Source: a bacterium (GTDB lineage Bacteria; Verrucomicrobiota; Kiritimatiellia; CAIVKH01). Taken from it: DNA of 56,751 nucleotides. The stretch covers positions 1 through 56,751 of the forward strand of contig JAUIHQ010000001.1 in assembly GCA_030432155.1 (NCBI GenBank), in the 5' to 3' direction. The position numbers and the translations under genes are program-made. Of the stretch, positions 1 to 38,540 are shown in pieces (position 1 is the stretch's first letter; each line of letters opens with the position of its first letter). The notes under the pieces are model-generated. The model saw only the letters and a list, made by a program, of their open reading frames with translations. It had not been told where the DNA came from and searched no databases.

Positions 1-666
1 TATAATAGATGAATTGGTGAAGCGGCCGCCGTACCACTTTGTTCTCGTTTCATAGAGATTCCCGAGGGTCGGGTCCTCCAGTTCTATACGGACCGGCATG
101 TCTCGCGGATGCCAGAACTGAAAGGCTACAAGGTCGGGATCTCCGCCATCGATGAGGCGGTCCTGTGTGTCGGGAATACCATCATGGTCAGTGTCATTGC
201 TGTTCACCCATGCAATCACACCTTGTGTCTCCTTCGCCTCCGGTGCAACCGGATCCGGATCCACATTCACACACAGGGCCTGGGGCTCGTATACCTTGAC
301 CCCGGGCCAGCGTAACTTCCCGTTATGATGCAACAGGTACTCGTTCACCTTCATGGACCCTACGCCATCAACAGGCGTTTGCAGGCCGAAGAATCGATAT
401 TTTCGTCCTTCACCAAGCGGCACCGCACCTTCCACACTGACTACATGATGGCCATGGGGCATCAGCCGCACCGGGACAATGGCCCCGATCGAATCGGCGC
501 CTCCCTCAATCTGAAAGTGATGCTCACGAAGATAGTCGGTAAGCGACCGGTCAAAAGCATCGCTCAACCGAGGCGGATCCATCAGATCATTCAGCGTGTA
601 GGTTCGGGCCACAGCAACGAGAGGTACTATCGCCAGGAAGATCGCACTCGCTCGCACCAACCTCAT
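1..666 (-). CDS. exported hypothetical protein, N-terminal part only (runs off window start)
   Basis: Absent from the ORF track because there is no stop in the window. My minus-strand translation from the ATG at 666-664 stays open for 222 codons: MRLVRASAIFLAIVPLVAVARTYTLNDL... (signal-peptide-like). An Asp loop NSNDTDHDGIPDTQD follows later. The ATG overlaps the stop of the upstream ORF (ATGA, 663-666). Confidence 0.5.
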   Translation of the reverse strand, partial: MRLVRASAIFLAIVPLVAVARTYTLNDLMDPPRLSDAFDRSLTDYLREHHFQIEGGADSIGAIVPVRLMPHGHHVVSVEGAVPLGEGRKYRFFGLQTPVDGVGSMKVNEYLLHHNGKLRWPGVKVYEPQALCVNVDPDPVAPEAKETQGVIAWVNSNDTDHDGIPDTQDRLIDGGDPDLVAFQFWHPRDMPVRIELEDPTLGNLYETRTKWYGGRFTNSSII

Positions 667-1181
667 CGCGGGGATCTCCACGATACATGGTTTTCGGGCC
701 ATGCTTCATCCCGATTTACGGAGCGAGCGGGTATACTCAGGATATCCATGGGATCGGAGCCGGCAGCAATCTCGTCCGCATTGCTGTAGCCATCGTCATC
801 CAGATCCAGCTCGCTATCCGTCCGGCCTGACTCGGGATAGGTGGCCGATTGCAGGGGATCAAGCAAGAGCAGACGCTCCCACCCATCATCCAATCCATCC
901 CCGTCCGAATCGACCAGAAGGGGGTCTGTTCCCTCGCGCCGTTCCTGGTCGCTGGATATCCCGTCACCATCCTCATCCTGAACCGCGGACTCGTGTATGT
1001 GCCGGTTCAACTCAACGACAATGCTCCGGGCCCGGACAGGGTCTGCCGGAAGCATGATGTACCGGCGGACACCATCGCCGAAAACTTCCGTCCGAAGATG
1101 TTGGCTGTCCTGTGCAGTCGCTGCGCCTCCGGGGACTGCCATCGACAAGAAAATCACAACCAGGCAAACCGCATCAAACAT
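663..1181 (-). CDS. small exported protein with TSP3-like calcium-binding Asp loops
   Basis: Track ORF 663..1238. I prefer the internal ATG at 1181-1179, which gives MFDAVCLVVIFLSMAVPGGAATAQ (hydrophobic signal/anchor). Loops: QDEDGDGISSDQE, DSDGDGLDDGWE, DLDDDGYSNADE. This start overlaps the RT stop (1174-1176) by 8 nt (ATGTTTGA). Confidence 0.55.
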   Translation of the reverse strand: MFDAVCLVVIFLSMAVPGGAATAQDSQHLRTEVFGDGVRRYIMLPADPVRARSIVVELNRHIHESAVQDEDGDGISSDQERREGTDPLLVDSDGDGLDDGWERLLLLDPLQSATYPESGRTDSELDLDDDGYSNADEIAAGSDPMDILSIPARSVNRDEAWPENHVSWRSPR

Positions 1182-2364
1182 AGCCGCCCCCCGGTTCCTG
1201 GCGTGGGCTGGAATCGATCCGGGCGATCCGGCATGCACATGCCGGATTGATCATATGTAGAAAGCTGAGTTTACCCTCGAGAACCCGGACCGGGTCGGCC
1301 GCAGTGTTTCGGCTTACATGATCTTCCACCGCATCGTCACCCATTGTTCGCCGGCGATGCTCCATCGCGCGCAGCCGACGCCTTTCACTGCGCGGAATGT
1401 TCATGGTTTCATTTACCACGATTCCGGTTACGGTCTGGCGACGCGACTTCCGCATCACCCGCACCTTCTTCTCGTTTACCCGAAATCCCTCGTCCACGAT
1501 GATCTCTTTGATCCATGGTATCAGCTCGGGCAAACGGGGATTGTTGGAAGAAAGAATGAGATCATCTGCATACCTGGTGTACCGGAACTTCATGCGCCTC
1601 GCGAGACCGGCCAATCGTCGGTCAAGGTTACCGGCAACAAAGTTCGAGACCGCAGGGCTGGTCACACCGCCCTGGGGCAATGAATCATCAAGCGTACAGA
1701 TGTTGGCCAGGGCAATGGCGACCCGATAGGGATAACCGAACGATTCAAAGACCTTGCGCACCTGGCGATGCGTTATGGATGGAAAGAAATCCTCAAGATC
1801 GATTCGCAGGACGACTTGTCTTCCAATATGCGGCCGCGCGTTATCGGCGATCGACATCCCCTTTCGGTATGCCCGTGCGCTACGATGCGGCTTCCGATGA
1901 TCGAGGATCGAACGGACCACCCACGATTGTATGCGCTTCAATCGGCCGCAGGGAGCGTGAATGGTTCGCGAGCGGCCGTCCGACTTGGGAACCTCAAAGG
2001 ACCGATACAACTGTCGCCGGTTAAACAGCATGCCGTTCATGTCAGCGACGGACATGTGCAAGCGGCGGGCCAGGTGTTCGTTGTTGAAGATCACCGGAAT
2101 CCGGCGGGCCCCGATCGTCCTGCTGTAACGCCCGAAGAAGTCAAGCAGGCGAAGGTCGATATCCGGATTCCGCTCCACAATCCATTTCAGATGCTTGTCA
2201 TCTCGTAATGACGGAGAAGGATCCTCATCATGCATGACCGGCTCGCGACCGGCATCGAGACAGGCCCGGGCATAGGCGCACACCAGGTCCTTGATCTCCG
2301 GATCCGCGCCGGCCTGACGCTGCAACTGATTCAGTGCTTCTATGGTTTTGTACTTCTCTTGCAT
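1174..2364 (-). CDS. retron-type reverse transcriptase
   Basis: 396-aa ORF, colinear by eye with retron Ec86 RT. Motifs: YRSFEVPKSDGRSRTIHAP, ADNARPHIG (NAxxH), LRIDLEDFFPSI, LPQGGVTSP, RYADDLILS (YADD), RQTVTGIVVN (retron VTG) and a LEGKLSFL tail. No maturase or endonuclease domain. There is an extra ~85 aa at the N-terminus. Confidence 0.85.
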   Translation of the reverse strand: MQEKYKTIEALNQLQRQAGADPEIKDLVCAYARACLDAGREPVMHDEDPSPSLRDDKHLKWIVERNPDIDLRLLDFFGRYSRTIGARRIPVIFNNEHLARRLHMSVADMNGMLFNRRQLYRSFEVPKSDGRSRTIHAPCGRLKRIQSWVVRSILDHRKPHRSARAYRKGMSIADNARPHIGRQVVLRIDLEDFFPSITHRQVRKVFESFGYPYRVAIALANICTLDDSLPQGGVTSPAVSNFVAGNLDRRLAGLARRMKFRYTRYADDLILSSNNPRLPELIPWIKEIIVDEGFRVNEKKVRVMRKSRRQTVTGIVVNETMNIPRSERRRLRAMEHRRRTMGDDAVEDHVSRNTAADPVRVLEGKLSFLHMINPACACRIARIDSSPRQEPGGGYV

Positions 2365-2375
2365 GACCGAAAGGG

Positions 2376-2545
2376 TGACGCGGCATCGGCGGCTTACCTT
2401 CTCGCCGGATAACGGCTCGCACGAGGCGGGAGTCCGGGCAAGAGGGCTTGCCCGGACGACCTTAGTGCATCAGCAGTGAACGTTGTGTGCGGCGAATCAC
2501 CGCACCCCGCAATACGCGGAACTAAATCCTGCCGATGCCGCGTCA
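2376..2545 (-). ncRNA. candidate retron msr-msd non-coding RNA
   Basis: On the minus strand, a perfect 15-nt inverted repeat: TGACGCGGCATCGGC (2545-2531, a1) pairs with GCCGATCCGCGTCA-type complement GCCGATGCCGCGTCA (2390-2376, a2). The arms enclose 140 nt. Internal hairpins lie at 2519-2507 (4 bp), 2505-2487 (6 bp) and 2457-2432 (11-bp perfect stem, 4-nt loop). a1 is followed by AGG, a candidate branching G. a2 ends 11 nt before the RT ATG. Confidence 0.55.
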
Positions 2546-2547
2546 AA

Positions 2548-2886
2548 TCATTCAAATGTTATGTTTTTCATTGCCACCAATGGTTTCGGGGATTGAACAA
2601 CAAAGTCCGGGGATGGAAAGGGAACGGCGCCAACGCGGGATCCATCGACGGCAAATGATTCCGTCTTCCCACGCCACGCGATATCCAGTCGGGAAAATGT
2701 ATGACCGCAGTTGGGACAATACCCCCGGCAGGGATCATTCAATGCTCGCAAAGCACTGATGGCGCGACAATGGCGGCACTGCAGATACCCTGACGCCTTA
2801 CCGACCATAAGGCCGGTCGCGGCAACGGCGACCCCGGCGAGGCCAAGTCCGGCGAGAAAGGATCGTCTGGTCATACTGCTGCTCAT
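2548..2886 (-). CDS. small Tat-signal protein with 4-Cys zinc-ribbon-like motif
   Basis: Track ORF 2548..2943. The start at 2886 gives MSSSMTRRSFLAGLGLAGVAVAATG (twin-arginine motif RRSFL). It overlaps the stop of the 1090-aa ORF as ATGA (2883-2886). Cysteines: CRHC...CPNC. Confidence 0.55.
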   Translation of the reverse strand: MSSSMTRRSFLAGLGLAGVAVAATGLMVGKASGYLQCRHCRAISALRALNDPCRGYCPNCGHTFSRLDIAWRGKTESFAVDGSRVGAVPFPSPDFVVQSPKPLVAMKNITFE

Positions 2887-5800
2887 GGAACCACCCTCGT
2901 TGCGTTTCGATAGGCAGCGGAACCATCGCCCAGCTCTTTCCACTCCTCCGGATCGGTGTAGGCCCGGTAATCGTCAAATTGACGTGGATCGGTACCATTC
3001 AGATACTCCTCAATGTCCAGCAGGCCGTCCCGGTCCGTATCGTCATAGGGATATCCGAAGTCGCGGCTTCCGAAGTGAATCCATTCCCAGGCATCATCCA
3101 GACCATCCTGATCGGCATCGGGATGAATGTTGAAGTGGATGTCTTCCAGATTATCATCCACCACGATCCGAATCGGCATTCCGGTTTGAAGTGAGAAATA
3201 CCCTTCAGTAAGCGACTCGCTGTATACCCCGGCATCGAATTCCCCGACGACGTTTACCGGGATGCCGGTACATTGGTAGAGGCCGGAGGCTTCTTCACGA
3301 GCGATCCGAACCGAATCCGGTCGCCGATAGCCGATATGCATAAGGTGCTGAACATCGGATTCGGATGACTCGGAGTAATACACCCGCACGTCGTCCACCT
3401 TGCCATTCCAGCCATGCAGGTATGGATCTGCACCATCGCCGAGTATCGGGTTCAGCATGAAGCCCGGAGTCCTTTCAACGCTCCCGGCGTGAACAAGCTG
3501 CCCATTCAGGAAACAAGACAGATTGGTGCTGTTCCAGGTTACCACGATATGATGCCATGTCTCTGCATCAAGACGCCGGCCCGGCTCCGCATCACTGAAC
3601 CCTCCCGGCACCATGATGCCTCCCCCTGCATTCATGCGGATGAAAAATGATTCTGGGTCCGTTCGATCAGCCTGAAACAGTTCTCGAACCCGGGACGGCT
3701 TGTCGAACGGATAGACTCGACAGGAGATGGTTCCCCTGGAGCCGAGGTCCATGGGCGGCAGGGCGATTCGACCCAACCCTTTCGTATAGCAGGCCCCGTA
3801 GCCGTCCGACCCATTCTTCGCGGCCCAGACATCAACAAACTGTGCATCGATCCTGGTCAGGCCGTAGTTGCGGGGGGTCACACCACCATGGCCACCCACA
3901 TCAAGAGGAAGATGCACCGCGAGCTCCTCTTCCCATATGACGCGGGCCGCCGGAACATACTCGAGAGGTTTTGATGATGTGATGCGGCCGGATACCGTAC
4001 AGGGATCCTGCAGAAGCCGGCCGGTTCCCGGAATCGGAAGGACATCTACACGGGACAATCGCTCATTGAATGTGATCCGATAGCGGCCGGCAGGCCAGGC
4101 GTCGGCCGGTGCAGCCCCGTCGTCTGCGCCGGATGTCATTCCGGCACCAAGGCTCAGCACCTCATCGTTGCCTTCCACTCGAAACCCATCGCCGGCAAGA
4201 CCCGCGGACGGCAAGGCGGCTGCGTTCTCCGACTCGGGAACCTCGACATCAATCTGCCAGAGATAGGCTGCGGTAAGAACCATGTTGGTCTGAGCAACCG
4301 ACATACCCAGGCCGGTCAACTGCATTTCCTGGTAGCTGGATACGGGGGCATTCCATTGGTGGGGGGGCAGACCCATGGTCAGTTCTTCTTCATCGGTAAG
4401 GCCGTCATGGTCCGAATCCGGAGAGTGACTGTCAGGTATGCGAGGATCCGTTCCATCCCTCCACTCCGCATCATTGGTCCTTCCATCTCCATCGGGATCT
4501 CCATCGGCGCCATTGCTTTCGTCCCAGGATCCGTCGTCAAAGGGATCCAGCCCATGGGCCCGTTCCCAGGCATCCGGCAAACCGTCGCCATCAGCATCGG
4601 GAAGAGAAGCGCCGGCCGGCACCACCGGGATCCGCCAACGCACACCGCGATTATCGTCTGCATGGCCCCGCGCATCGGTAATCGCCACCTGCAGCTCTTC
4701 GGCACTCGGCACAACCACAACCGCTTCCTGTCGGTTACGCTCGGACGCATGAACGGCATCAACCGCCAATACCGTGATGCCGGCCTCCACGATAAAGCTC
4801 ACCGGCGGTTCCATCTCCGTACCGGGAGGCAGAGCATAGGACAGCTTGAGGAGACCTCCGGCGACCGGGCGCGGCGGTTGCCAGATCAACGGAATGGCGG
4901 CGACATCATTCGAGGCGGAGGGATCCGTGCCCAGCGCCCATTCCATGCCATGATCAAAGGTGATGCCCATCAACCCGTCTCCATCGGGGTTGTCTCGACC
5001 CCCATATACCGTCGACCCGAACCAGTAGGTCTCCCAGTCATCGGGAAGTCCATCGTTGTCGGCATCCGTAGCATCACCAAGAACATCGGCAATATGATAG
5101 GCATCTTCCGGCGATGCATGAACGAGGCCGGCGCCATCGGTGATCAGCATCCGGTAATAGAGGCGGGAGGATGGCGGGAGGGTACCGAGCTGGAGATGCC
5201 AGAGGTCGTTGTTGTTCGCCTCGGCATGGTTTACGACCGGTTCGCGGAACCATTCACCGCCTTCAACAGAGTATTCCACGCTGCCGCTGAAGCCTCGGCC
5301 GGCGGGCCAGGTTTCAGTGTTGAGCCACAACGAATCCTGCGAGCTGAGCATACCGTTGTATGGCCAGTGGTGGGTATTGCCGATCCAGTACAAGGGCAGA
5401 CCCGCGCGGACACCGGCGGTAAAGGGGGTCACCTGACTCCCCACACTCACCTGGTTGGTGTGGTGATCTATGAAGCTGAGCCAGTAGTCGATGACATGTC
5501 CGCCGGGGAACGACCCGAGGTTTACATGCCACCAGTCGTTGTTGCCTCGGATACCGGCACGCGACAGCTCCCGGATCCCGACAACATCATTGATCTGTGT
5601 CTTGTAGAAGAGCAGCGCATGGGAGGCCGCATCCCGGGGCCAGGTTTCGGCATCGATCCACAGATCCTCGCCGGCATCGAGCTCGCCGTCCGGCGGCCAC
5701 TGAGTGACATGGCCGGCCCACCGGATGACCGGGGGCTGGTCGGGGGCTACGGTGAAGGAATAGTCCGCCCCGCCATTGCTGTCCCACATATCACCGGTCT

Positions 5801-6155
5801 CGGTATGACGGAGATGGAAGAAGTACCGGACTTCACCGGCCGGAAACGGTTCGGCAGGGGTATAGCGCCAGATCGAGTCGATGCTGTTGGAACCGGCGTA
5901 CGTCATACGGTGCATGGACCAGTTCCCCGCCCCGGCCCGGATGCCGACCTCCACGAAAAGGTCCGAGGATCGATCGTTGACGAGGACTGTGAACACCCCC
6001 GGATTCCCCCCTTCGTGACGCAGAAACGACCCATACGCGCCCATCCATGAGGGCGCCGCCATGGATGAGGCGGGCATCAGGGAAACCATGATAACGATTG
6101 CCGTAACAATCGCCGCATGAATCACTTGGAATGTCTTGCTTGAGAGCTTTGCCAT
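2883..6155 (-). CDS. large secreted non-catalytic protein: CBM-like repeats + TSP3 loops + LamG domain
   Basis: 1090 aa with a signal-like N-terminus (...IVIMVSLMPASSMAAP). It has N-terminal ~100-aa repeats containing WPPDGELDAGEDLWIDAETWPRDAA and WDSNGGADYSF-type motifs. Asp loops: DADNDGLPDDWE, DADGDGLPDAWE, DPDGDGRTNDAEW, DADQDGLDDAWE, DTDRDGLLDIEEY. A LamG-like block reads WHHIVVTWNSTNLSCFLNGQLV...GKVDDVRVY. I recognise no hydrolase motif. Confidence 0.8.
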   Translation of the reverse strand: MAKLSSKTFQVIHAAIVTAIVIMVSLMPASSMAAPSWMGAYGSFLRHEGGNPGVFTVLVNDRSSDLFVEVGIRAGAGNWSMHRMTYAGSNSIDSIWRYTPAEPFPAGEVRYFFHLRHTETGDMWDSNGGADYSFTVAPDQPPVIRWAGHVTQWPPDGELDAGEDLWIDAETWPRDAASHALLFYKTQINDVVGIRELSRAGIRGNNDWWHVNLGSFPGGHVIDYWLSFIDHHTNQVSVGSQVTPFTAGVRAGLPLYWIGNTHHWPYNGMLSSQDSLWLNTETWPAGRGFSGSVEYSVEGGEWFREPVVNHAEANNNDLWHLQLGTLPPSSRLYYRMLITDGAGLVHASPEDAYHIADVLGDATDADNDGLPDDWETYWFGSTVYGGRDNPDGDGLMGITFDHGMEWALGTDPSASNDVAAIPLIWQPPRPVAGGLLKLSYALPPGTEMEPPVSFIVEAGITVLAVDAVHASERNRQEAVVVVPSAEELQVAITDARGHADDNRGVRWRIPVVPAGASLPDADGDGLPDAWERAHGLDPFDDGSWDESNGADGDPDGDGRTNDAEWRDGTDPRIPDSHSPDSDHDGLTDEEELTMGLPPHQWNAPVSSYQEMQLTGLGMSVAQTNMVLTAAYLWQIDVEVPESENAAALPSAGLAGDGFRVEGNDEVLSLGAGMTSGADDGAAPADAWPAGRYRITFNERLSRVDVLPIPGTGRLLQDPCTVSGRITSSKPLEYVPAARVIWEEELAVHLPLDVGGHGGVTPRNYGLTRIDAQFVDVWAAKNGSDGYGACYTKGLGRIALPPMDLGSRGTISCRVYPFDKPSRVRELFQADRTDPESFFIRMNAGGGIMVPGGFSDAEPGRRLDAETWHHIVVTWNSTNLSCFLNGQLVHAGSVERTPGFMLNPILGDGADPYLHGWNGKVDDVRVYYSESSESDVQHLMHIGYRRPDSVRIAREEASGLYQCTGIPVNVVGEFDAGVYSESLTEGYFSLQTGMPIRIVVDDNLEDIHFNIHPDADQDGLDDAWEWIHFGSRDFGYPYDDTDRDGLLDIEEYLNGTDPRQFDDYRAYTDPEEWKELGDGSAAYRNATRVVP

Positions 6156-6165
6156 GTCGGCGGCT

Positions 6166-6194
6166 GTTAAAACGTTTTACATGCGTGGTGTCAA
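6166..6194 (-). promoter_or_regulatory. candidate sigma70-type promoter of the 6155->1 operon
   Basis: Minus strand: TTGACA (6194-6189), 17-nt spacer, TTTAAC (6171-6166). Only 10 nt separate the -10 from the ATG at 6155, so the leader would be very short. Confidence 0.3.
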
Positions 6195-6313
6195 TGCATT
6201 TTCTTGAAGAAAGTTTCAACGTGTTGCCGGGGAATAGGTTATGAGTGGTAAAATGTTTTACTTATCCGCGGAGGGGGTTGGATTTCATCATCTTATCTGG
6301 CCTGTTCCTGCAT

Positions 6314-6353
6314 CCCGGCTCGCGAGCCGCTCGCCCTCCCGGGGGAGAGTTGG
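6314..6353 (+). repeat. GC-rich intergenic repeat, copy 1 (contains palindrome CGGCTCGCGAGCCG)
   Basis: cccggctcgcgagccgctcgccctcccgggggagagttgg. It matches 7163-7202 with one mismatch. An inverted, 1-nt-indel copy lies at 32334-32367. Confidence 0.8.
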
Positions 6354-6435
6354 GCTATGTGCAGGATGGGAGGGAGTTCTGGTTGTACAAGAACCTGCCC
6401 ACGAATCAGCACGAATACTGATGTTGATTGCCCTA

Positions 6436-6464
6436 TTGAAATATGGGTGTTATACCCATATGAT
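6436..6464 (+). promoter_or_regulatory. candidate vapBC promoter with embedded palindromic operator
   Basis: TTGAAA (6436-6441), 17-nt spacer, TATGAT (6459-6464). The spacer holds the inverted repeat ATATGGGT-N5-ACCCATAT (6441-6461). The vapB ATG at 6472 is 7 nt after the -10. Confidence 0.4.
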
Positions 6465-6471
6465 ATGCCGT

Positions 6472-6699
6472 ATGAAGACGACCATTGAAATCGATGAGAA
6501 GCTGCTCATGAGCGTAATGAAGCTGACCGGCGCTAAAACCAGGCGCGCGGCTGTCGATTATGCCCTGCATGAGGCAGAGAAAGCGGCCAAAGTCGCTCAC
6601 CTTGTCCGTGAAGCCCCTCCGGAACGTGCATTCAGGGATGCGATTGACGATTCGTATGACATCCTTTCGCTGAGAGAGCAGGAGAAACCGAAACCGTGA
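6472..6699 (+). CDS. vapB: type II antitoxin, VapB-like
   Basis: MKTTIEIDEKLLMSVMKLTGAKTRRAAVDYALHE... is a typical short VapB/DUF2191-like antitoxin N-terminus. Its stop overlaps the GTG start of the PIN gene (GTGA, 6696-6699). The upstream part of track ORF 6241.. runs through the intergenic repeat. Confidence 0.75.
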   Translation: MKTTIEIDEKLLMSVMKLTGAKTRRAAVDYALHEAEKAAKVAHLVREAPPERAFRDAIDDSYDILSLREQEKPKP

Positions 6700-7070
6700 T
6701 TCTGATCGATTCCTGCATGTATATCGACTGGATGAAACAGGGAATCAATCCGGTCGAGCGCCTTGCTCCGCGCCATGCTGAACTGATCTCATGCGGCATC
6801 ATCCATCTCGAAGTCATTCGGGGCATTACAAAAACCGTGGTGAAAGAGTATTTGATCAAATACTTCGACATTCTTCCTCAGGTTCCCCTGTCCAACGGTA
6901 TCCTTCAGTCGGCAACGGAACTCGCATGGGAATCGGACCGTAAAGGGATCGTTCTTCCCTCGACGGACCTGATCATCGCGGCGTGTGTGCTGAAGGCAGG
7001 CGCAACCATGATCACCCGCGACCAGCACTTCTCAAGAATCCCCGGCATCCGGGTCTCAGACGATCTGTAG
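6696..7070 (+). CDS. vapC: PIN-domain toxin VapC
   Basis: 124 aa. PIN acidic residues sit in their usual contexts: ILIDS, HLEVIRG, TDLIIAA, TRDQHF. Confidence 0.85.
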   Translation: MILIDSCMYIDWMKQGINPVERLAPRHAELISCGIIHLEVIRGITKTVVKEYLIKYFDILPQVPLSNGILQSATELAWESDRKGIVLPSTDLIIAACVLKAGATMITRDQHFSRIPGIRVSDDL

Positions 7071-7162
7071 CGGGACGCTTGAAATGCGGTACGTTTCTGT
7101 TCCTGTTCATCAGCAACGTTCTGCTGCATGGCGACCGCCTCATCGGTTGTGACGCCCCAGCG

Positions 7163-7202
7163 CCCGGCTCGCGAGCCGCTCGCCCTCCCGGGGGAGGGTT
7201 GG
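7163..7202 (+). repeat. GC-rich intergenic repeat, copy 2
   Basis: cccggctcgcgagccgctcgccctcccgggggagggttgg. It is a direct repeat of 6314-6353 and lies just after the vapC stop. Confidence 0.8.
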
Positions 7203-7269
7203 CAATGGGTGGGATGGACGATGATTGGCTGTTTCTTGACGCCGTTCCGCCCACAATCCAGAATCGGCC

Positions 7270-7923
7270 ATGCCATGGATGCACATAGGCCGGTTGCTGG
7301 TTCCGTCTGCGCTGCTGATGCTGGGGGCGGGGTGTGCGGGGTTGGGCGGGGGGTCGAAGGATGCGCTGCCGGCGCGGATTGACCTGATCGAGACGCCGCG
7401 GGCGATCCGGGGGGATTACAGTTATCCGGACGCGTATACCCGGCACCTTTTTCTCTGGAATGATTTCGGAGCGAACTGGCGGATCTATCTACCGTCCCGG
7501 CGCTATGCCCACTCCGGCATCCGGTTTATCTATCCCCACGACCTGAGCGGGGTTCGCGACACATATTTCATCGAGCTGAAGATTCGTCCGGCGAAGCTGG
7601 CCAATCACCTGTGGGTGGGCCTGGTCGACAGCAAGAAGATCCCGGGCCGGGTCATGGTGGACGCGCCGATGCGGGCGGAAGGCGAGCCGGTGTACCGCGG
7701 GACGGACGCGGTGAAGATCCGGATTCCCCTCGACCGGTTCGGCGGGGACGTGCTGTTGCAGGAAGCCGACGACACCGGCGACGACGGGGCGATCGACCTC
7801 TCGGCGGGATCCGACGGGGCGGTCTTCGACTGGTCGGACGTACGCGAGCTGCGGATCATCAGCCCCGGCTCACGCCTCCCCGCCCGCGAAATCACCATCG
7901 AACACCTCGAGCTGCGCCGGTAA
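7270..7923 (+). CDS. hypothetical lipoprotein
   Basis: Lipobox-like N-terminus: MPWMHIGRLLVPSALLMLGAGCAG. No recognisable catalytic motif. Confidence 0.6.
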   Translation: MPWMHIGRLLVPSALLMLGAGCAGLGGGSKDALPARIDLIETPRAIRGDYSYPDAYTRHLFLWNDFGANWRIYLPSRRYAHSGIRFIYPHDLSGVRDTYFIELKIRPAKLANHLWVGLVDSKKIPGRVMVDAPMRAEGEPVYRGTDAVKIRIPLDRFGGDVLLQEADDTGDDGAIDLSAGSDGAVFDWSDVRELRIISPGSRLPAREITIEHLELRR

Positions 7924-8025
7924 CCGCCGCGGATTGAGGCTGGCCATTACAACCATTTTGTTTATAAGGGGTTCTGATATGCAGCTTCTCGCAGGGAAGA
8001 ACCACCAAACGCAGGAGGCACCATC

Positions 8026-36425: not shown

Positions 36426-37493
36426 TTACGCGCTCTCGCGAACCACGATCCGGGGGTCGATGATGCGGATATCCCCAACATTGCGGTTGTGAATGATCTG
36501 CATCAGGGCCTCCACTTTTTCCTGCAGGCCCTGGTCGATCGTGGTCAGGCGGGGCCGTACAAACCGGCTCATCTGCAGGTTGTCATAGCCGACAACGGCA
36601 AGGTGCGCGGGAACGTTACGGCCTAGATTCTGCAACCCTTCAATCAATCCGGCGGCGAGAATGTCCGCGGGCACGACGACGCCGTCCGCGCCGCTGTTCG
36701 CGATCTCTTCCGCAGCCCGCAGTCCGTCGTCATACGAGGTTTGAAGCGGAAACAGGCGCGGCGGGTTCAGCCCTGCCATCTCACAGGCCTTTACCGCCCC
36801 CTCGTACCGCATCGCCATGACATCGTTTTTCCGGTTGGGATCGACATCACCGGCAAACACGATGTGTTTTTTCCCGATGTCGATCAGTCGTTCGGCGGCA
36901 AGATATCCGCCCTTTACTTCATTGGTGCGGACCAGCGAGTGCACACGGTTGTGGTCGAACGAGTCATACAGCACGCAGTGAACATCATTGCGCACAAGCG
37001 ATTCCGGGAAGGCGCGCTCCGGCACCCCGACAAGAACGGCCGACTCAACACCCCGCTCCAGCAGAAACTGGATGTATTCTTCCTCGGTCCCGCCATGCAC
37101 GCACAGGCCGTAGCCATATTTTCGGGCCTGCTGTTCAAACCGGAAAACGAATTCACCATAGAAAGGATTGATGTCGGAACCCTCGGTTCGCTTGCCCGCT
37201 TCAGGGACGATCACTGCAATCAATCGCGATTTCTTGCCGGTCAGCGCCGCGGCCGCGAGATTGCGCACATAACCAAGCTCACGAACGGCATCTCGCACCC
37301 GGTCGGCCGTGGCCGGTGATACTTCATTCGTCCGGCCATTGATCACATACGAAACCGTGGCCACCGAAACCTCGGCCACCGCGGCGACATCGGCGATGGT
37401 CGGCTTGCCCAGCCGGTCCTTGACCGTCCGGCGGGTACGCCTGCGGGTATTTGAGGATTTACGGCTGGATCGTTCTCGCGACATGTATTTCAA
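36426..37493 (-). CDS. LacI family transcriptional regulator
   Basis: HTH: PTIADVAAVAEVSVATVSYVINGR. This is followed by a periplasmic-binding-protein-like sugar-binding core. Confidence 0.9.
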   Translation of the reverse strand: MKYMSRERSSRKSSNTRRRTRRTVKDRLGKPTIADVAAVAEVSVATVSYVINGRTNEVSPATADRVRDAVRELGYVRNLAAAALTGKKSRLIAVIVPEAGKRTEGSDINPFYGEFVFRFEQQARKYGYGLCVHGGTEEEYIQFLLERGVESAVLVGVPERAFPESLVRNDVHCVLYDSFDHNRVHSLVRTNEVKGGYLAAERLIDIGKKHIVFAGDVDPNRKNDVMAMRYEGAVKACEMAGLNPPRLFPLQTSYDDGLRAAEEIANSGADGVVVPADILAAGLIEGLQNLGRNVPAHLAVVGYDNLQMSRFVRPRLTTIDQGLQEKVEALMQIIHNRNVGDIRIIDPRIVVRESA

Positions 37494-37575: not shown

Positions 37576-37792
37576 GGGCAACCGGGAGGTTGCCCCTCCT
37601 GATGCCAGCTCCCCACACGTCCATCTTCGCCAATATCGTCCCTACCCTTTGGCGCGTGATTCGTGATGGAAGACGACCACCATGCCATGGCGTAGCAATG
37701 CGAAGCCAGGTCCGTTGGCCGCCGCGGGTTTATCAAAGGGCTCCCCACACATCCATCTTCGCCAATCCGGAGGGGCAACCTCCCGGTTGCCC
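37576..37792. repeat. paired intergenic repeat units (hairpin + 27-nt direct repeat)
   Basis: Hairpin GGGCAACC-GGGA-GGTTGCCC (37576-37595) and its loop-inverted twin GGGCAACC-TCCC-GGTTGCCC (37773-37792). Direct repeats gctccccacacRtccatcttcgccaat lie at 37608-37634 and 37740-37766. Confidence 0.6.
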
Positions 37793-37828
37793 TCGGTGTC
37801 GAAACCAATGACGCGGGACCAACAATCA

Positions 37829-37865
37829 CAACAAAGACGGCCCGGAGAAAAACCTCCGGGCCGTC
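37829..37865 (-). terminator. rho-independent terminator of lipoprotein gene
   Basis: 12-bp perfect stem GACGGCCCGGAG / CTCCGGGCCGTC (37836-37865), 6-nt loop. On the minus strand it is followed by TTTGTTGTG. Confidence 0.55.
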
Positions 37866-37898
37866 AACCATGGCTGGAATGCCATATGAAATTCGTAC

Positions 37899-38540
37899 TC
37901 AGTGCTGCATCGACTCGTCAGCTTCATCCATGGCGGCATCGGCTTCGTCGGCCGCTTCCTCGGCGGTATCCTCCACCTGCTCGACGGCTTCTTCCGAGGC
38001 ATCCATGGCTTCATCGGCCGCTTCTTCGACTGCGTCACCGGCTTCGTCCGCGGCATCCATGGCGGCATCCCCCGCCTCTTCCGCGGCTTCGGCGCCGGCA
38101 GCGGCGGCTTCTTCTCCCTGCCCCCTTATACCGGCCATTGCCTCCTCCGCTTTTGCTTTCATTGAACCGGCGGCCTCAGAGACAGCGGCAGCAGCTTCCT
38201 TGCCGGCCTTCTCAACTTTTTCTGCTCCGGCGGCGGTTGCTTCGGAAATCGATTTTGCGGCGGAATCCGCAGCCTCCTTGGCCTGGGCGGAAACTTCCGC
38301 CGCCTTTTCGGATGCGTCCTTCACCATCTGATCGGTCGATTCCTTGACCGCAGCGGCGGTTTCCGACGCCTTCTGGCCCACGGCATCCGCACCGTCCTTG
38401 ACCTTCTGTTTCATGGTCTCGGTCATGCTCGATGCCGAGGACTCGGTACCCTCTTCACCCGAGGTGGTGGAGGATGACTGCGAGCAGCCTGCGGCGACAC
38501 ATGCACACACGGAAAGAATCAACCAGTGCTTTCTCTTCAT
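37899..38540 (-). CDS. acidic Ala/Glu-rich lipoprotein (LEA/apolipoprotein-like repeats)
   Basis: MKRKHWLILSVCACVAAGCSQ has a lipobox. AAGGAG lies 9 nt upstream. The rest is low-complexity A/E/K/D helical repeats. Confidence 0.7.
   Translation of the reverse strand: MKRKHWLILSVCACVAAGCSQSSSTTSGEEGTESSASSMTETMKQKVKDGADAVGQKASETAAAVKESTDQMVKDASEKAAEVSAQAKEAADSAAKSISEATAAGAEKVEKAGKEAAAAVSEAAGSMKAKAEEAMAGIRGQGEEAAAAGAEAAEEAGDAAMDAADEAGDAVEEAADEAMDASEEAVEQVEDTAEEAADEADAAMDEADESMQH

Follow-up and report, generated by a model that had tools for sequence, protein, structure and literature searches.

Two questions are raised by the locus described here: to which kind of retron it belongs, and which protein serves as the partner of that retron. 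The stretch analysed, referred to as the window, is a whole contig, comprising positions 1 to 56,751 of JAUIHQ010000001.1 from a bacterium of the Kiritimatiellia (GenBank assembly GCA_030432155.1; 56,751 nt). Near the contig end, its minus strand carries a small gene, a non-coding RNA (ncRNA) with msr and msd regions, and the gene of a retron reverse transcriptase (RT). The partner protein of a retron decides the action of the system on the cell, and an earlier note on this DNA, made from the letters alone, had seen no flanking gene of a known effector class; indeed, the flanking genes in the window gave no match to the PADLOC effector models. By comparison with related loci, the small gene, the ncRNA and the RT form a conserved three-part unit. 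The locus is probably a genuine and complete retron whose lineage is its own, closest to type XIII without belonging to it, and the small protein is its likely third component. It is possibly a new retron type.

The classification of retrons uses the RT clade, the type of ncRNA and the partner protein; 13 types were given in Table 1 of Mestre et al. 2020 (PMC7736814), none of them with a partner of this kind. The family to which the window copy belongs is a new combination of an Mx162-related RT with a new N-terminal domain, a family-specific ncRNA, and a small partner with a twin-arginine translocation (TAT) signal and four Cys residues. Judged from sequence, these three hallmarks, including the helical RT N-terminal domain of about 87 aa, appear to co-occur only in this family in the data examined. 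The lineage, the ncRNA type and the small TAT partner are found in none of the 13 published types, PADLOC, Pfam, Rfam or the searched literature. Literature searches for retron with zinc ribbon and multicopy single-stranded DNA (msDNA), retron with twin-arginine, and retron with 'type XIV' returned nothing relevant. Additionally, retrons of PVC (Planctomycetes, Verrucomicrobia and Chlamydiae) genomes had been called essentially unstudied. This needs refining, since Planctomycetota are among the hosts given for type XIII retrons in a 2026 survey of retron diversity, so that the retrons of PVC genomes are catalogued at least in part; the group of the window is unmentioned in that survey.

Relatives were obtained by a protein search. 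It recovered about 30 RTs, 377-408 aa long, that have the N-terminal domain and match at 37-55% identity across 93% or more of the length; one of them is labelled Kiritimatiellia. The related loci were taken from the contigs of these RT relatives and from a metagenome scan keyed on a motif of the RT N-terminal domain. The control set consisted of 80 loci (L011-L090) with generic retron RTs from GTDB representative genomes. No family member was found in those genomes by an RT-alignment scan, which returned only generic retron RTs of at most 43% identity, matching in the RT core only.

Reverse transcriptase and ncRNA of the family

The NAxxH, VTG and YADD motifs that had been read in the 396-aa open reading frame (ORF) are all present (Table 1), and H179, T313, G314 and Y265-D268 are unchanged across the alignment of 30 RT relatives. 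Definitions of the NAxxH (region X) and VTG (region Y) motifs are those of PMC7736814. PADLOC retron RT models match the protein with E-values from 1e-94 to 1e-53, and the best of them is RT_XIII (315.8 bits, E = 1.4e-94); the leading profiles are XIII, III-A and II-A. The NCBIfam retron models score about 235-243 bits, and retron_St85_RT 233.5 bits against a cut-off of 235. Non-retron NCBIfam models stay far under their cut-offs, the group II model reaching 57 bits (cut-off 300) and the Drt2/Drt3a models 33-37 bits. The nearest PDB entries by sequence are the Ec86 RT (8e-45), then Ec67, Ec78 and other retron RTs. An AlphaFold2 (AF2) model built from the alignment of 30 relatives reached a predicted local distance difference test (pLDDT) score of 91.4. 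In Foldseek this model matched the Ec86 RT best (TMt 0.84-0.87, root-mean-square deviation about 3 A), and all of the top 18 matches were retron RTs; group II RTs and those of diversity-generating retroelements (DGRs) followed well behind (DGR TMq 0.51). By sequence and structure matches, the protein is a retron-class RT, as the earlier note had held.

The first approximately 87 residues form a separate, all-helical domain. Retron RT profiles and solved retron RTs start to align to the window RT only at residues 86-94, which agrees with the N-terminal extension of about 85 aa claimed earlier. The domain is conserved in the 30 RT relatives and is modelled by AF2 as five helices with a pLDDT of about 90. 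A profile hidden Markov model (HMM) of the domain matched family loci only, with 0 matches in the 80 control loci. Ec86 (also Eco1; type II-A; 7v9u, 7v9x, 8qbk) has the closest solved RT, but this RT is without such a domain, and its alignment begins at window residue 88.

As described earlier, a perfect 15-nt inverted repeat (a1/a2) lies on the same strand 5' of the RT with 140 nt between its arms, and an 11-bp perfect hairpin stem is found within that interval. Only 11 nt separate the end of a2 (2376) from the RT ATG (2364-2362). In Markov-1 shuffles, 0.03 perfect inverted repeats of at least 15 nt with arms 100-250 nt apart are expected per window by chance; the window has two. For the minus strand of 2365-2560 the predicted folding energy is -96.7 kcal/mol (z = -5.86), and 0 of 200 shuffles were as stable.

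Comparison of the family loci displays a common layout 5' of every family RT: a1; (G)AUUUAG; hairpin 1; GG; hairpin 2 (GYGGYG-nUU-CGCCRC); ACAACGUUAAC; a variable long hairpin; GGUAAAC; and a2. When searched de novo, each of the 18 ncRNAs yielded an a1/a2 pairing, 8-16 bp long. The a1 sequence changes between loci, each with its own a2 complement, reading TGACGCGGCATCGGC in the window, TGAGGGACAGCGCC in L010a, TTGACGCCGGGACCT in L105 and GGGAGTGCTC in L099. When a plain MAFFT alignment was given to RNAalifold, the a1/a2 stem and the two msr hairpins emerged, and 16 of the 20 pairs displayed compensatory changes. Hairpin 1 is present in this consensus with compensatory changes in 3 of 3 modelled pairs, and hairpin 2 is paired in 100% of cells over 19 sequences, with such changes in 4 of 8 pairs. 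After covariance-model realignment, 95.4% of cells are paired, compared to 30-55% in controls with the partners shifted by 1-3 columns; none of 500 shuffles attained the observed values. It can be seen that the ncRNA has been conserved, with covariation in the a1/a2 stem and the two msr hairpins, and the a1-msr-msd-a2-ret layout first proposed from the window alone is thereby borne out in homologous loci. The msd position is variable, the relatives having a hairpin of other sequence at the same site.

The covariance model, built from 18 relatives with the window sequence included, scores the window 102.9 bits at 2374-2546(-). On the 80 control loci it gave no match except one weak match in L041 (5621-5821; 21 bits, E = 0.033). 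A Planctomycetota retron RT with 42% identity to the window RT core lies just 3' of this stretch, which may be distantly related to the family ncRNA. A scan of 1-8000 against Rfam at E <= 1 found no retron msr or relevant family, and only one chance snoRNA match.

The comparison also bears on the 2'-5' branching G. The AGG following a1, in which it had been sought, is present at 2530-2528 but varies among relatives. The UUUAG element is more constant over the 18 ncRNAs, with TT invariant and AG nearly invariant. Its UUUA/UAAA helix, which prolongs a1/a2, is 94% paired and ends directly before a near-invariant G (2522 in the window). Because AGG varies and G2522 is near-invariant after the stem extension, G2522 is the more likely candidate for the branching G. 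The a1/a2 stem of Ec86 ends in UUA-G with the branching G directly after, which resembles the window UUUAG.

Three loci have two tandem ncRNAs before one RT (L001:7599-7768 and 7810-7978; L010:7593-7762 and 7806-7976; L091:5388-5557 and 5719-5888). Those of L001 and L010 diverge mainly in a1/a2 and the tip of the msd hairpin, and those of L091 are 96% identical and about 160 nt apart. To our knowledge, one RT serving two msr-msd units has not been described.

Tandem ncRNAs differing mainly in the msd hairpin, and an RT placed among large surface or adhesin-like genes as DGRs often are, would fit an RT that makes cDNA for another purpose, namely DGR-like or donor-DNA diversification of neighbouring surface genes. 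Against this, the RT is retron-class, the DGR RTs being much weaker structural matches, and no part of the ncRNAs matches neighbouring genes beyond chance matches of 10-16 nt. There is therefore no TR/VR (template repeat/variable repeat) pair, nor an msd match to neighbouring genes, and this idea, which we consider scarcely credible, was rejected.

The small TAT-signal protein beside the retron

The small gene ends at the border of the ncRNA and encodes a protein with a twin-arginine signal (TRRSFL and a hydrophobic stretch), four Cys (CxxC...CPxCG) and a C-terminal VPFP motif. The TIGR01409 TAT signal model scores it 21.6 bits (cut-off 16.7), and precomputed Pfam TAT_signal matches exist for some of its relatives; by motif and model score it is a predicted TAT substrate. 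All versions have [ST]RRxF[LI] followed by a hydrophobic stretch, the knuckles C-x2-C and C-P-x-C-G, (W-x-W-x-Q)VPFPN and a Lys near the C-terminus. In an 11-sequence alignment R7, R8, F10, C37, C40, C57, C60, G61, P89, F90 and P91 are all invariant. When 55 sequences are aligned, C37, C60, G61, P89, F90 and P91 remain invariant, and R7, R8, F10, C40 and C57 are conserved at 90% or more. Members are about 110-135 aa in size, with the stop at or inside a1. The AF2 model consists of a single long N-terminal helix (7-31) followed by small beta hairpins. Beyond the TAT signal no Pfam, PADLOC or PDB family fits: Foldseek with this model returned nothing under E = 1, and the PDB sequence profile matched only generic zinc ribbons.

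The association of this gene with the retron is close. Of 18 distinct loci with upstream DNA, 17 have it immediately 5' of the ncRNA, the exception being L004; the P0024 locus, where a 137-aa gene is 5' of the RT, was left out of this count. The outer contexts vary, with at least four kinds, while the small gene stays beside the retron. Upstream are found giant Beta_helix/TSP3/LTD proteins with a protein of about 330 aa, pentapeptide-repeat proteins, a He_PIG/Big_9/Laminin_G_3 protein, a response regulator, an isocitrate dehydrogenase on the opposite strand, a RAYT transposase region, or a helicase. Starting from the protein side, all four small-protein homologues that were looked up have a family ncRNA and RT as neighbours, the RT of L109 being truncated. 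The small-protein family is rare, with 56 clusters among 5.8e9 proteins in a profile search and about 100 full-length members, all short, among 1.84e9 representatives. Its HMM gave 0 matches in the 80 control loci. Moreover, distances between small proteins track those between RTs (Mantel r = 0.71, p = 4e-4). The earlier note had described the retron as embedded among exported proteins; the gene chain is confirmed, but the small ORF at 2548-2886 is more than context, being conserved in nearly all of these loci.

Several points weigh against the small protein as a third component and against a working retron of the kind proposed. msDNA synthesis, with every biochemical step, is taken by analogy from known retrons. 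The TAT signal predicts a periplasmic protein, apart from the cytoplasmic RT-msDNA, a location to be expected of the neighbouring exported proteins more than of a classic retron effector. The small ORF is translationally coupled, by an ATGA overlap, to the exported protein encoded before it; this holds for the window and for several relatives. The small protein has no toxic domain that can be recognised, and its AF2 model has only moderate confidence (pLDDT 66.5). Many of the 18 loci probably share descent and hence are non-independent. In L004, where the RT is 55% identical to that of the window, the ncRNA and RT are kept and the small gene is absent.

Some of the same points favour an effector-less retron carried in an exported-protein operon, the small TAT protein serving the surface genes, for example as a periplasmic accessory, and the ncRNA and RT needing read-through. 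Beside the ATGA coupling in the window, the corresponding called genes of L001, L010 and L101 overlap or share an end coordinate. Export is what the TAT signal predicts, and large exported repeat proteins (Beta_helix/TSP3/LTD, Laminin_G_3, pentapeptide, He_PIG/Big_9), akin to the 1090-aa protein of the window, are found 5' of the small gene in about 10 of the 18 loci. Accessory-less lineages such as the Ec107-like group are known, and L004 is itself without the gene. Also, no sigma-70-like promoter was found on the minus strand of 1-7000, which includes the whole chain from 6155 to 1, although this is weak evidence, as promoters in such organisms may differ. However, the small gene tracks the retron and not the surface genes: it is present by the response regulator in L009, the opposite-strand isocitrate dehydrogenase in L105, the RAYT region in L091 and a helicase/Zn-ribbon pair in L094. 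All four looked-up homologues have the family ncRNA and RT, the small-protein distances follow the RT distances, and an AT-rich stretch (by composition only) is located just 5' of the L107 small ORF. An effector-less retron in a surface operon is thus judged unlikely, and the small protein as third component is preferred.

Individual loci show further features of this gene. L004 is the closest relative of the window RT; at L004:7600-8001 the small gene is replaced by an AT-rich stretch that reads TTGACC-17-TATAAA by eye, 3' of a housekeeping rlmL-like gene. L109:6001-7006 is a decayed copy, with the small gene and ncRNA (35 bits) intact and an RT ORF that stops at about residue 135, just past the IPKxNG motif. 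In L099 (532-921) and L108 (5314-5802) the small ORF is without the usual TGA at the start of a1 and runs through a1 to the TAG of UUUAG, giving a coding/ncRNA overlap of about 25 nt. The gene is also under-annotated. The window copy is absent from a 15-billion-protein collection under both start codons tried, and the L107 gene (5361-5753) is called as only 56 aa. Surveys of called proteins would therefore miss it.

Placement among retron types and a proposed mechanism

Type XIII (RT clade 10: Mx162, Mx65, Sa163, Ne144; Mestre et al. 2020, PMC7736814) is the nearest published type. It shares with the family the best RT profile, an N-terminal extension of the RT, an ncRNA 5' of ret, and a multi-gene organisation with signs of vertical inheritance. 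With RT_XIII as the top PADLOC model and the RT 1.2 kb from the contig end, where the downstream context is cut, an ordinary Mx162-like retron might be supposed, its WH-SWIM and HEAT/ARM partners being beyond the contig end. However, family RTs reach 316-342 bits and lead the next model (RT_III-A or RT_other) by 11-45 bits, whereas true type XIII RTs score 520-540 bits, about 200 bits more, with a margin of about 200 bits. The N-terminal domain is non-homologous to that of type XIII (hhalign probability 1%), and the family ncRNA model does not match the XIII-like loci among L011-L090. In place of the WH-SWIM or HEAT/ARM partners, the small TAT-signal four-Cys protein is found here. PADLOC detected no WH-SWIM (cluster 114) or HEAT/ARM partner in the window flanks up to the contig end, nor any retron effector in ten neighbour genes of relatives; where relatives have 6-8 kb of flank on both sides, no Pfam family suggesting SWIM or ARM/HEAT occurs among the called genes. 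On the score margin, the unrelated N-terminus and the missing partner genes, membership of type XIII was rejected in this profile-based placement and is regarded as very unlikely.

Other known systems resemble the family in single features. The Ec86 effector is nucleoside deoxyribosyltransferase-like and is absent at the window locus. Type IV retrons have a small partner with a signal peptide that is membrane-targeted (Table 1, PMC7736814), a precedent for the mechanism proposed below. Their RTs belong to clade 3, and their effector has two transmembrane helices and no Cys knuckles; by contrast, the small protein of the window has one hydrophobic helix with an RR motif, modelled by AF2 as the single N-terminal helix, and no PADLOC effector match, and the RT profiles are those of XIII, III-A and II-A. 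Retrons that lack any accessory gene are known, the Ec107-like group among them. L004 is comparable to these in that its ncRNA-RT cassette stands alone; unlike them, the family has the small gene in all but one of its loci.

A working mechanism can be outlined from these comparisons. Because of the start/stop overlaps and the lack of a promoter-like site, a single transcription unit is proposed, in which the small ORF, the ncRNA and the RT would probably be transcribed together from the minus strand. The ncRNA would fold by a1:a2 pairing, with UUUA/UAAG lengthening the stem, at whose end G2522 would then stand. On the pattern of Ec86 and Mx162, the RT would bind near a2, prime from the 2'-OH of G2522 and copy the msd including the 2432-2457 hairpin, yielding msDNA; transcript folding, RT binding near a2 and 2'-OH priming are established retron biology (PMC7736814). 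The small protein would act as effector or accessory third component. The RT-msDNA complex might hold it, folded and metal-bound, in the cytoplasm, possibly via the RT N-terminal domain. If phage disturbed the msDNA, the small protein would be set free for the TAT pathway or the membrane, and growth arrest would follow. The mechanism resembles the membrane effector of type IV, which is its nearest precedent. As a whole, holding by RT-msDNA and release on phage attack are put forward tentatively, as possible but doubtful.

Still less probable, in our estimate, is that the obligate partner is a folded, metal-binding, TAT-exported protein and that the unit acts together with the surrounding large surface proteins. 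If true, this would be the first retron with an output at or beyond the cell envelope, or one domesticated for a surface-related function, in contrast to control of a cytoplasmic toxin. An exported partner would raise the question of how a cytoplasmic RT-msDNA sensor could control a periplasmic or membrane protein. What is new in the family is the partner, together with the repeated occurrence amid surface-protein genes. Additionally, the compact cassette of about 1.7 kb and the two ncRNAs per RT in some relatives may interest users of retrons for in-cell DNA production.

Gene chain and surroundings of the retron

The features of the retron and the adjoining genes are collected in Table 1. The tightly packed minus-strand chain runs from 6155 to the contig end, and the co-directional 4- and 8-nt overlaps reported earlier are confirmed. 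An ATGA at 2886-2883 joins the stop of the 1090-aa ORF to the small ORF ATG, an 8-nt overlap at 1181-1174 (ATGTTTGA) joins the RT stop to the ATG of the 172-aa TSP3 ORF, and an ATGA at 666-663 joins the latter to the ORF of at least 222 aa, for which no family was found.

Table 1. Positions of the retron components and neighbouring genes in the window
Feature	Coordinates	Strand	Remarks
msr-msd ncRNA	2376..2545	(-)	170 nt, a1 through a2
a1 arm	2531..2545	(-)	TGACGCGGCATCGGC
Conserved UUUAG	2522..2526	(-)	UUUA (2526-2523) pairable with UAAG (2396-2393), lengthening the a1/a2 stem
msr hairpin 1	2506..2520	(-)	UCCGC-GUAUU-GCGGG
msr hairpin 2	2487..2505	(-)	GUGCGGUG-AUU-CGCCGCAC; most conserved ncRNA element
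msd stem-loop	2432..2457	(-)	11-bp perfect stem (2432-2442 / 2447-2457), 4-nt loop
a2 arm	2376..2390	(-)	GCCGATGCCGCGTCA
Retron RT gene	1174..2364	(-)	396-aa ORF
Family-specific RT N-terminal domain	2104..2364	(-)	Residues 1-~87, all-helical, motif LQRQAGVDPE..ELV.AYARL
RT core and thumb			Residues ~88-380 of the 396-aa RT
RT motifs			NAxxH N175..H179 (ADNARPHIG); YADD 265-268 (RYADDL); VTG 312-314 (RQTVTGIVVN)
Small partner protein gene (putative third component)	2548..2886	(-)	112 aa; stop codon 2 nt before a1
1090-aa protein	2883..6155	(-)	Laminin_G_3 and TSP3 repeats; context, may or may not be linked
172-aa protein	663..1181	(-)	TSP3 repeats, signal-peptide-like N-terminus; context
ORF of at least 222 aa	1..666	(-)	Cut by contig end; context

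Homologues of the two genes 3' of the RT are found in L094, that of the 172-aa TSP3 protein in the same position (31% identity, E = 4.5e-11) and that of the ORF of at least 222 aa after the TSP3 gene (29% identity, E = 2.9e-21). Window 1-1181 and L094:7149-8712 thus have the same two genes in the same order 3' of the RT, and the domain of the 222-aa ORF also occurs within the giant upstream proteins of L010, L101 and L103. Because of this shared gene order and domain reuse, the same extracellular domains can be seen to recur around the family retron in different arrangements.

In the most distant branch (L009:9212-12419 and L105:7870-11952), two genes come after the RT, one of the PNP_UDP_1 family (nucleoside phosphorylase/nucleosidase-like) and then a large TPR gene. 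The PNP_UDP_1 gene of L009 overlaps the RT stop, and L105 has an extra 564-aa gene without a family. The PNP_UDP_1 proteins weakly match the PADLOC effector model PDLC00759 ('PN-superfamily'; 8e-07 and 5e-07), and this similarity suggests a defence role at least in these two loci. The window lineage is without these downstream genes.

Elsewhere in the window, a divergent pair of a VapB antitoxin (8e-11) and a PIN-domain VapC (2.6e-08) is located at 6472-7070(+), about 300 nt 5' of the retron gene chain. The rest of the scanned window (to 22779) contains an HrpB helicase, DoxX and large glycoside hydrolases and is not a typical defence island. The second long inverted repeat, at 37576-37792, is 24 nt and perfect (GGGCAACCGGGAGGTTGCCCCTCC / GGAGGGGCAACCTCCCGGTTGCCC), and the retron ncRNA model has no match there. 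Each arm is itself a hairpin, and the element has a direct repeat of about 28 nt, GCTCCCCACAC[G/A]TCCATCTTCGCCAAT. The first arm falls in the gap after ORF 36426-37493(-) and the second inside ORF 37682-38347(+). The element looks like a repetitive extragenic palindrome or a miniature inverted-repeat transposable element (REP/MITE-like).

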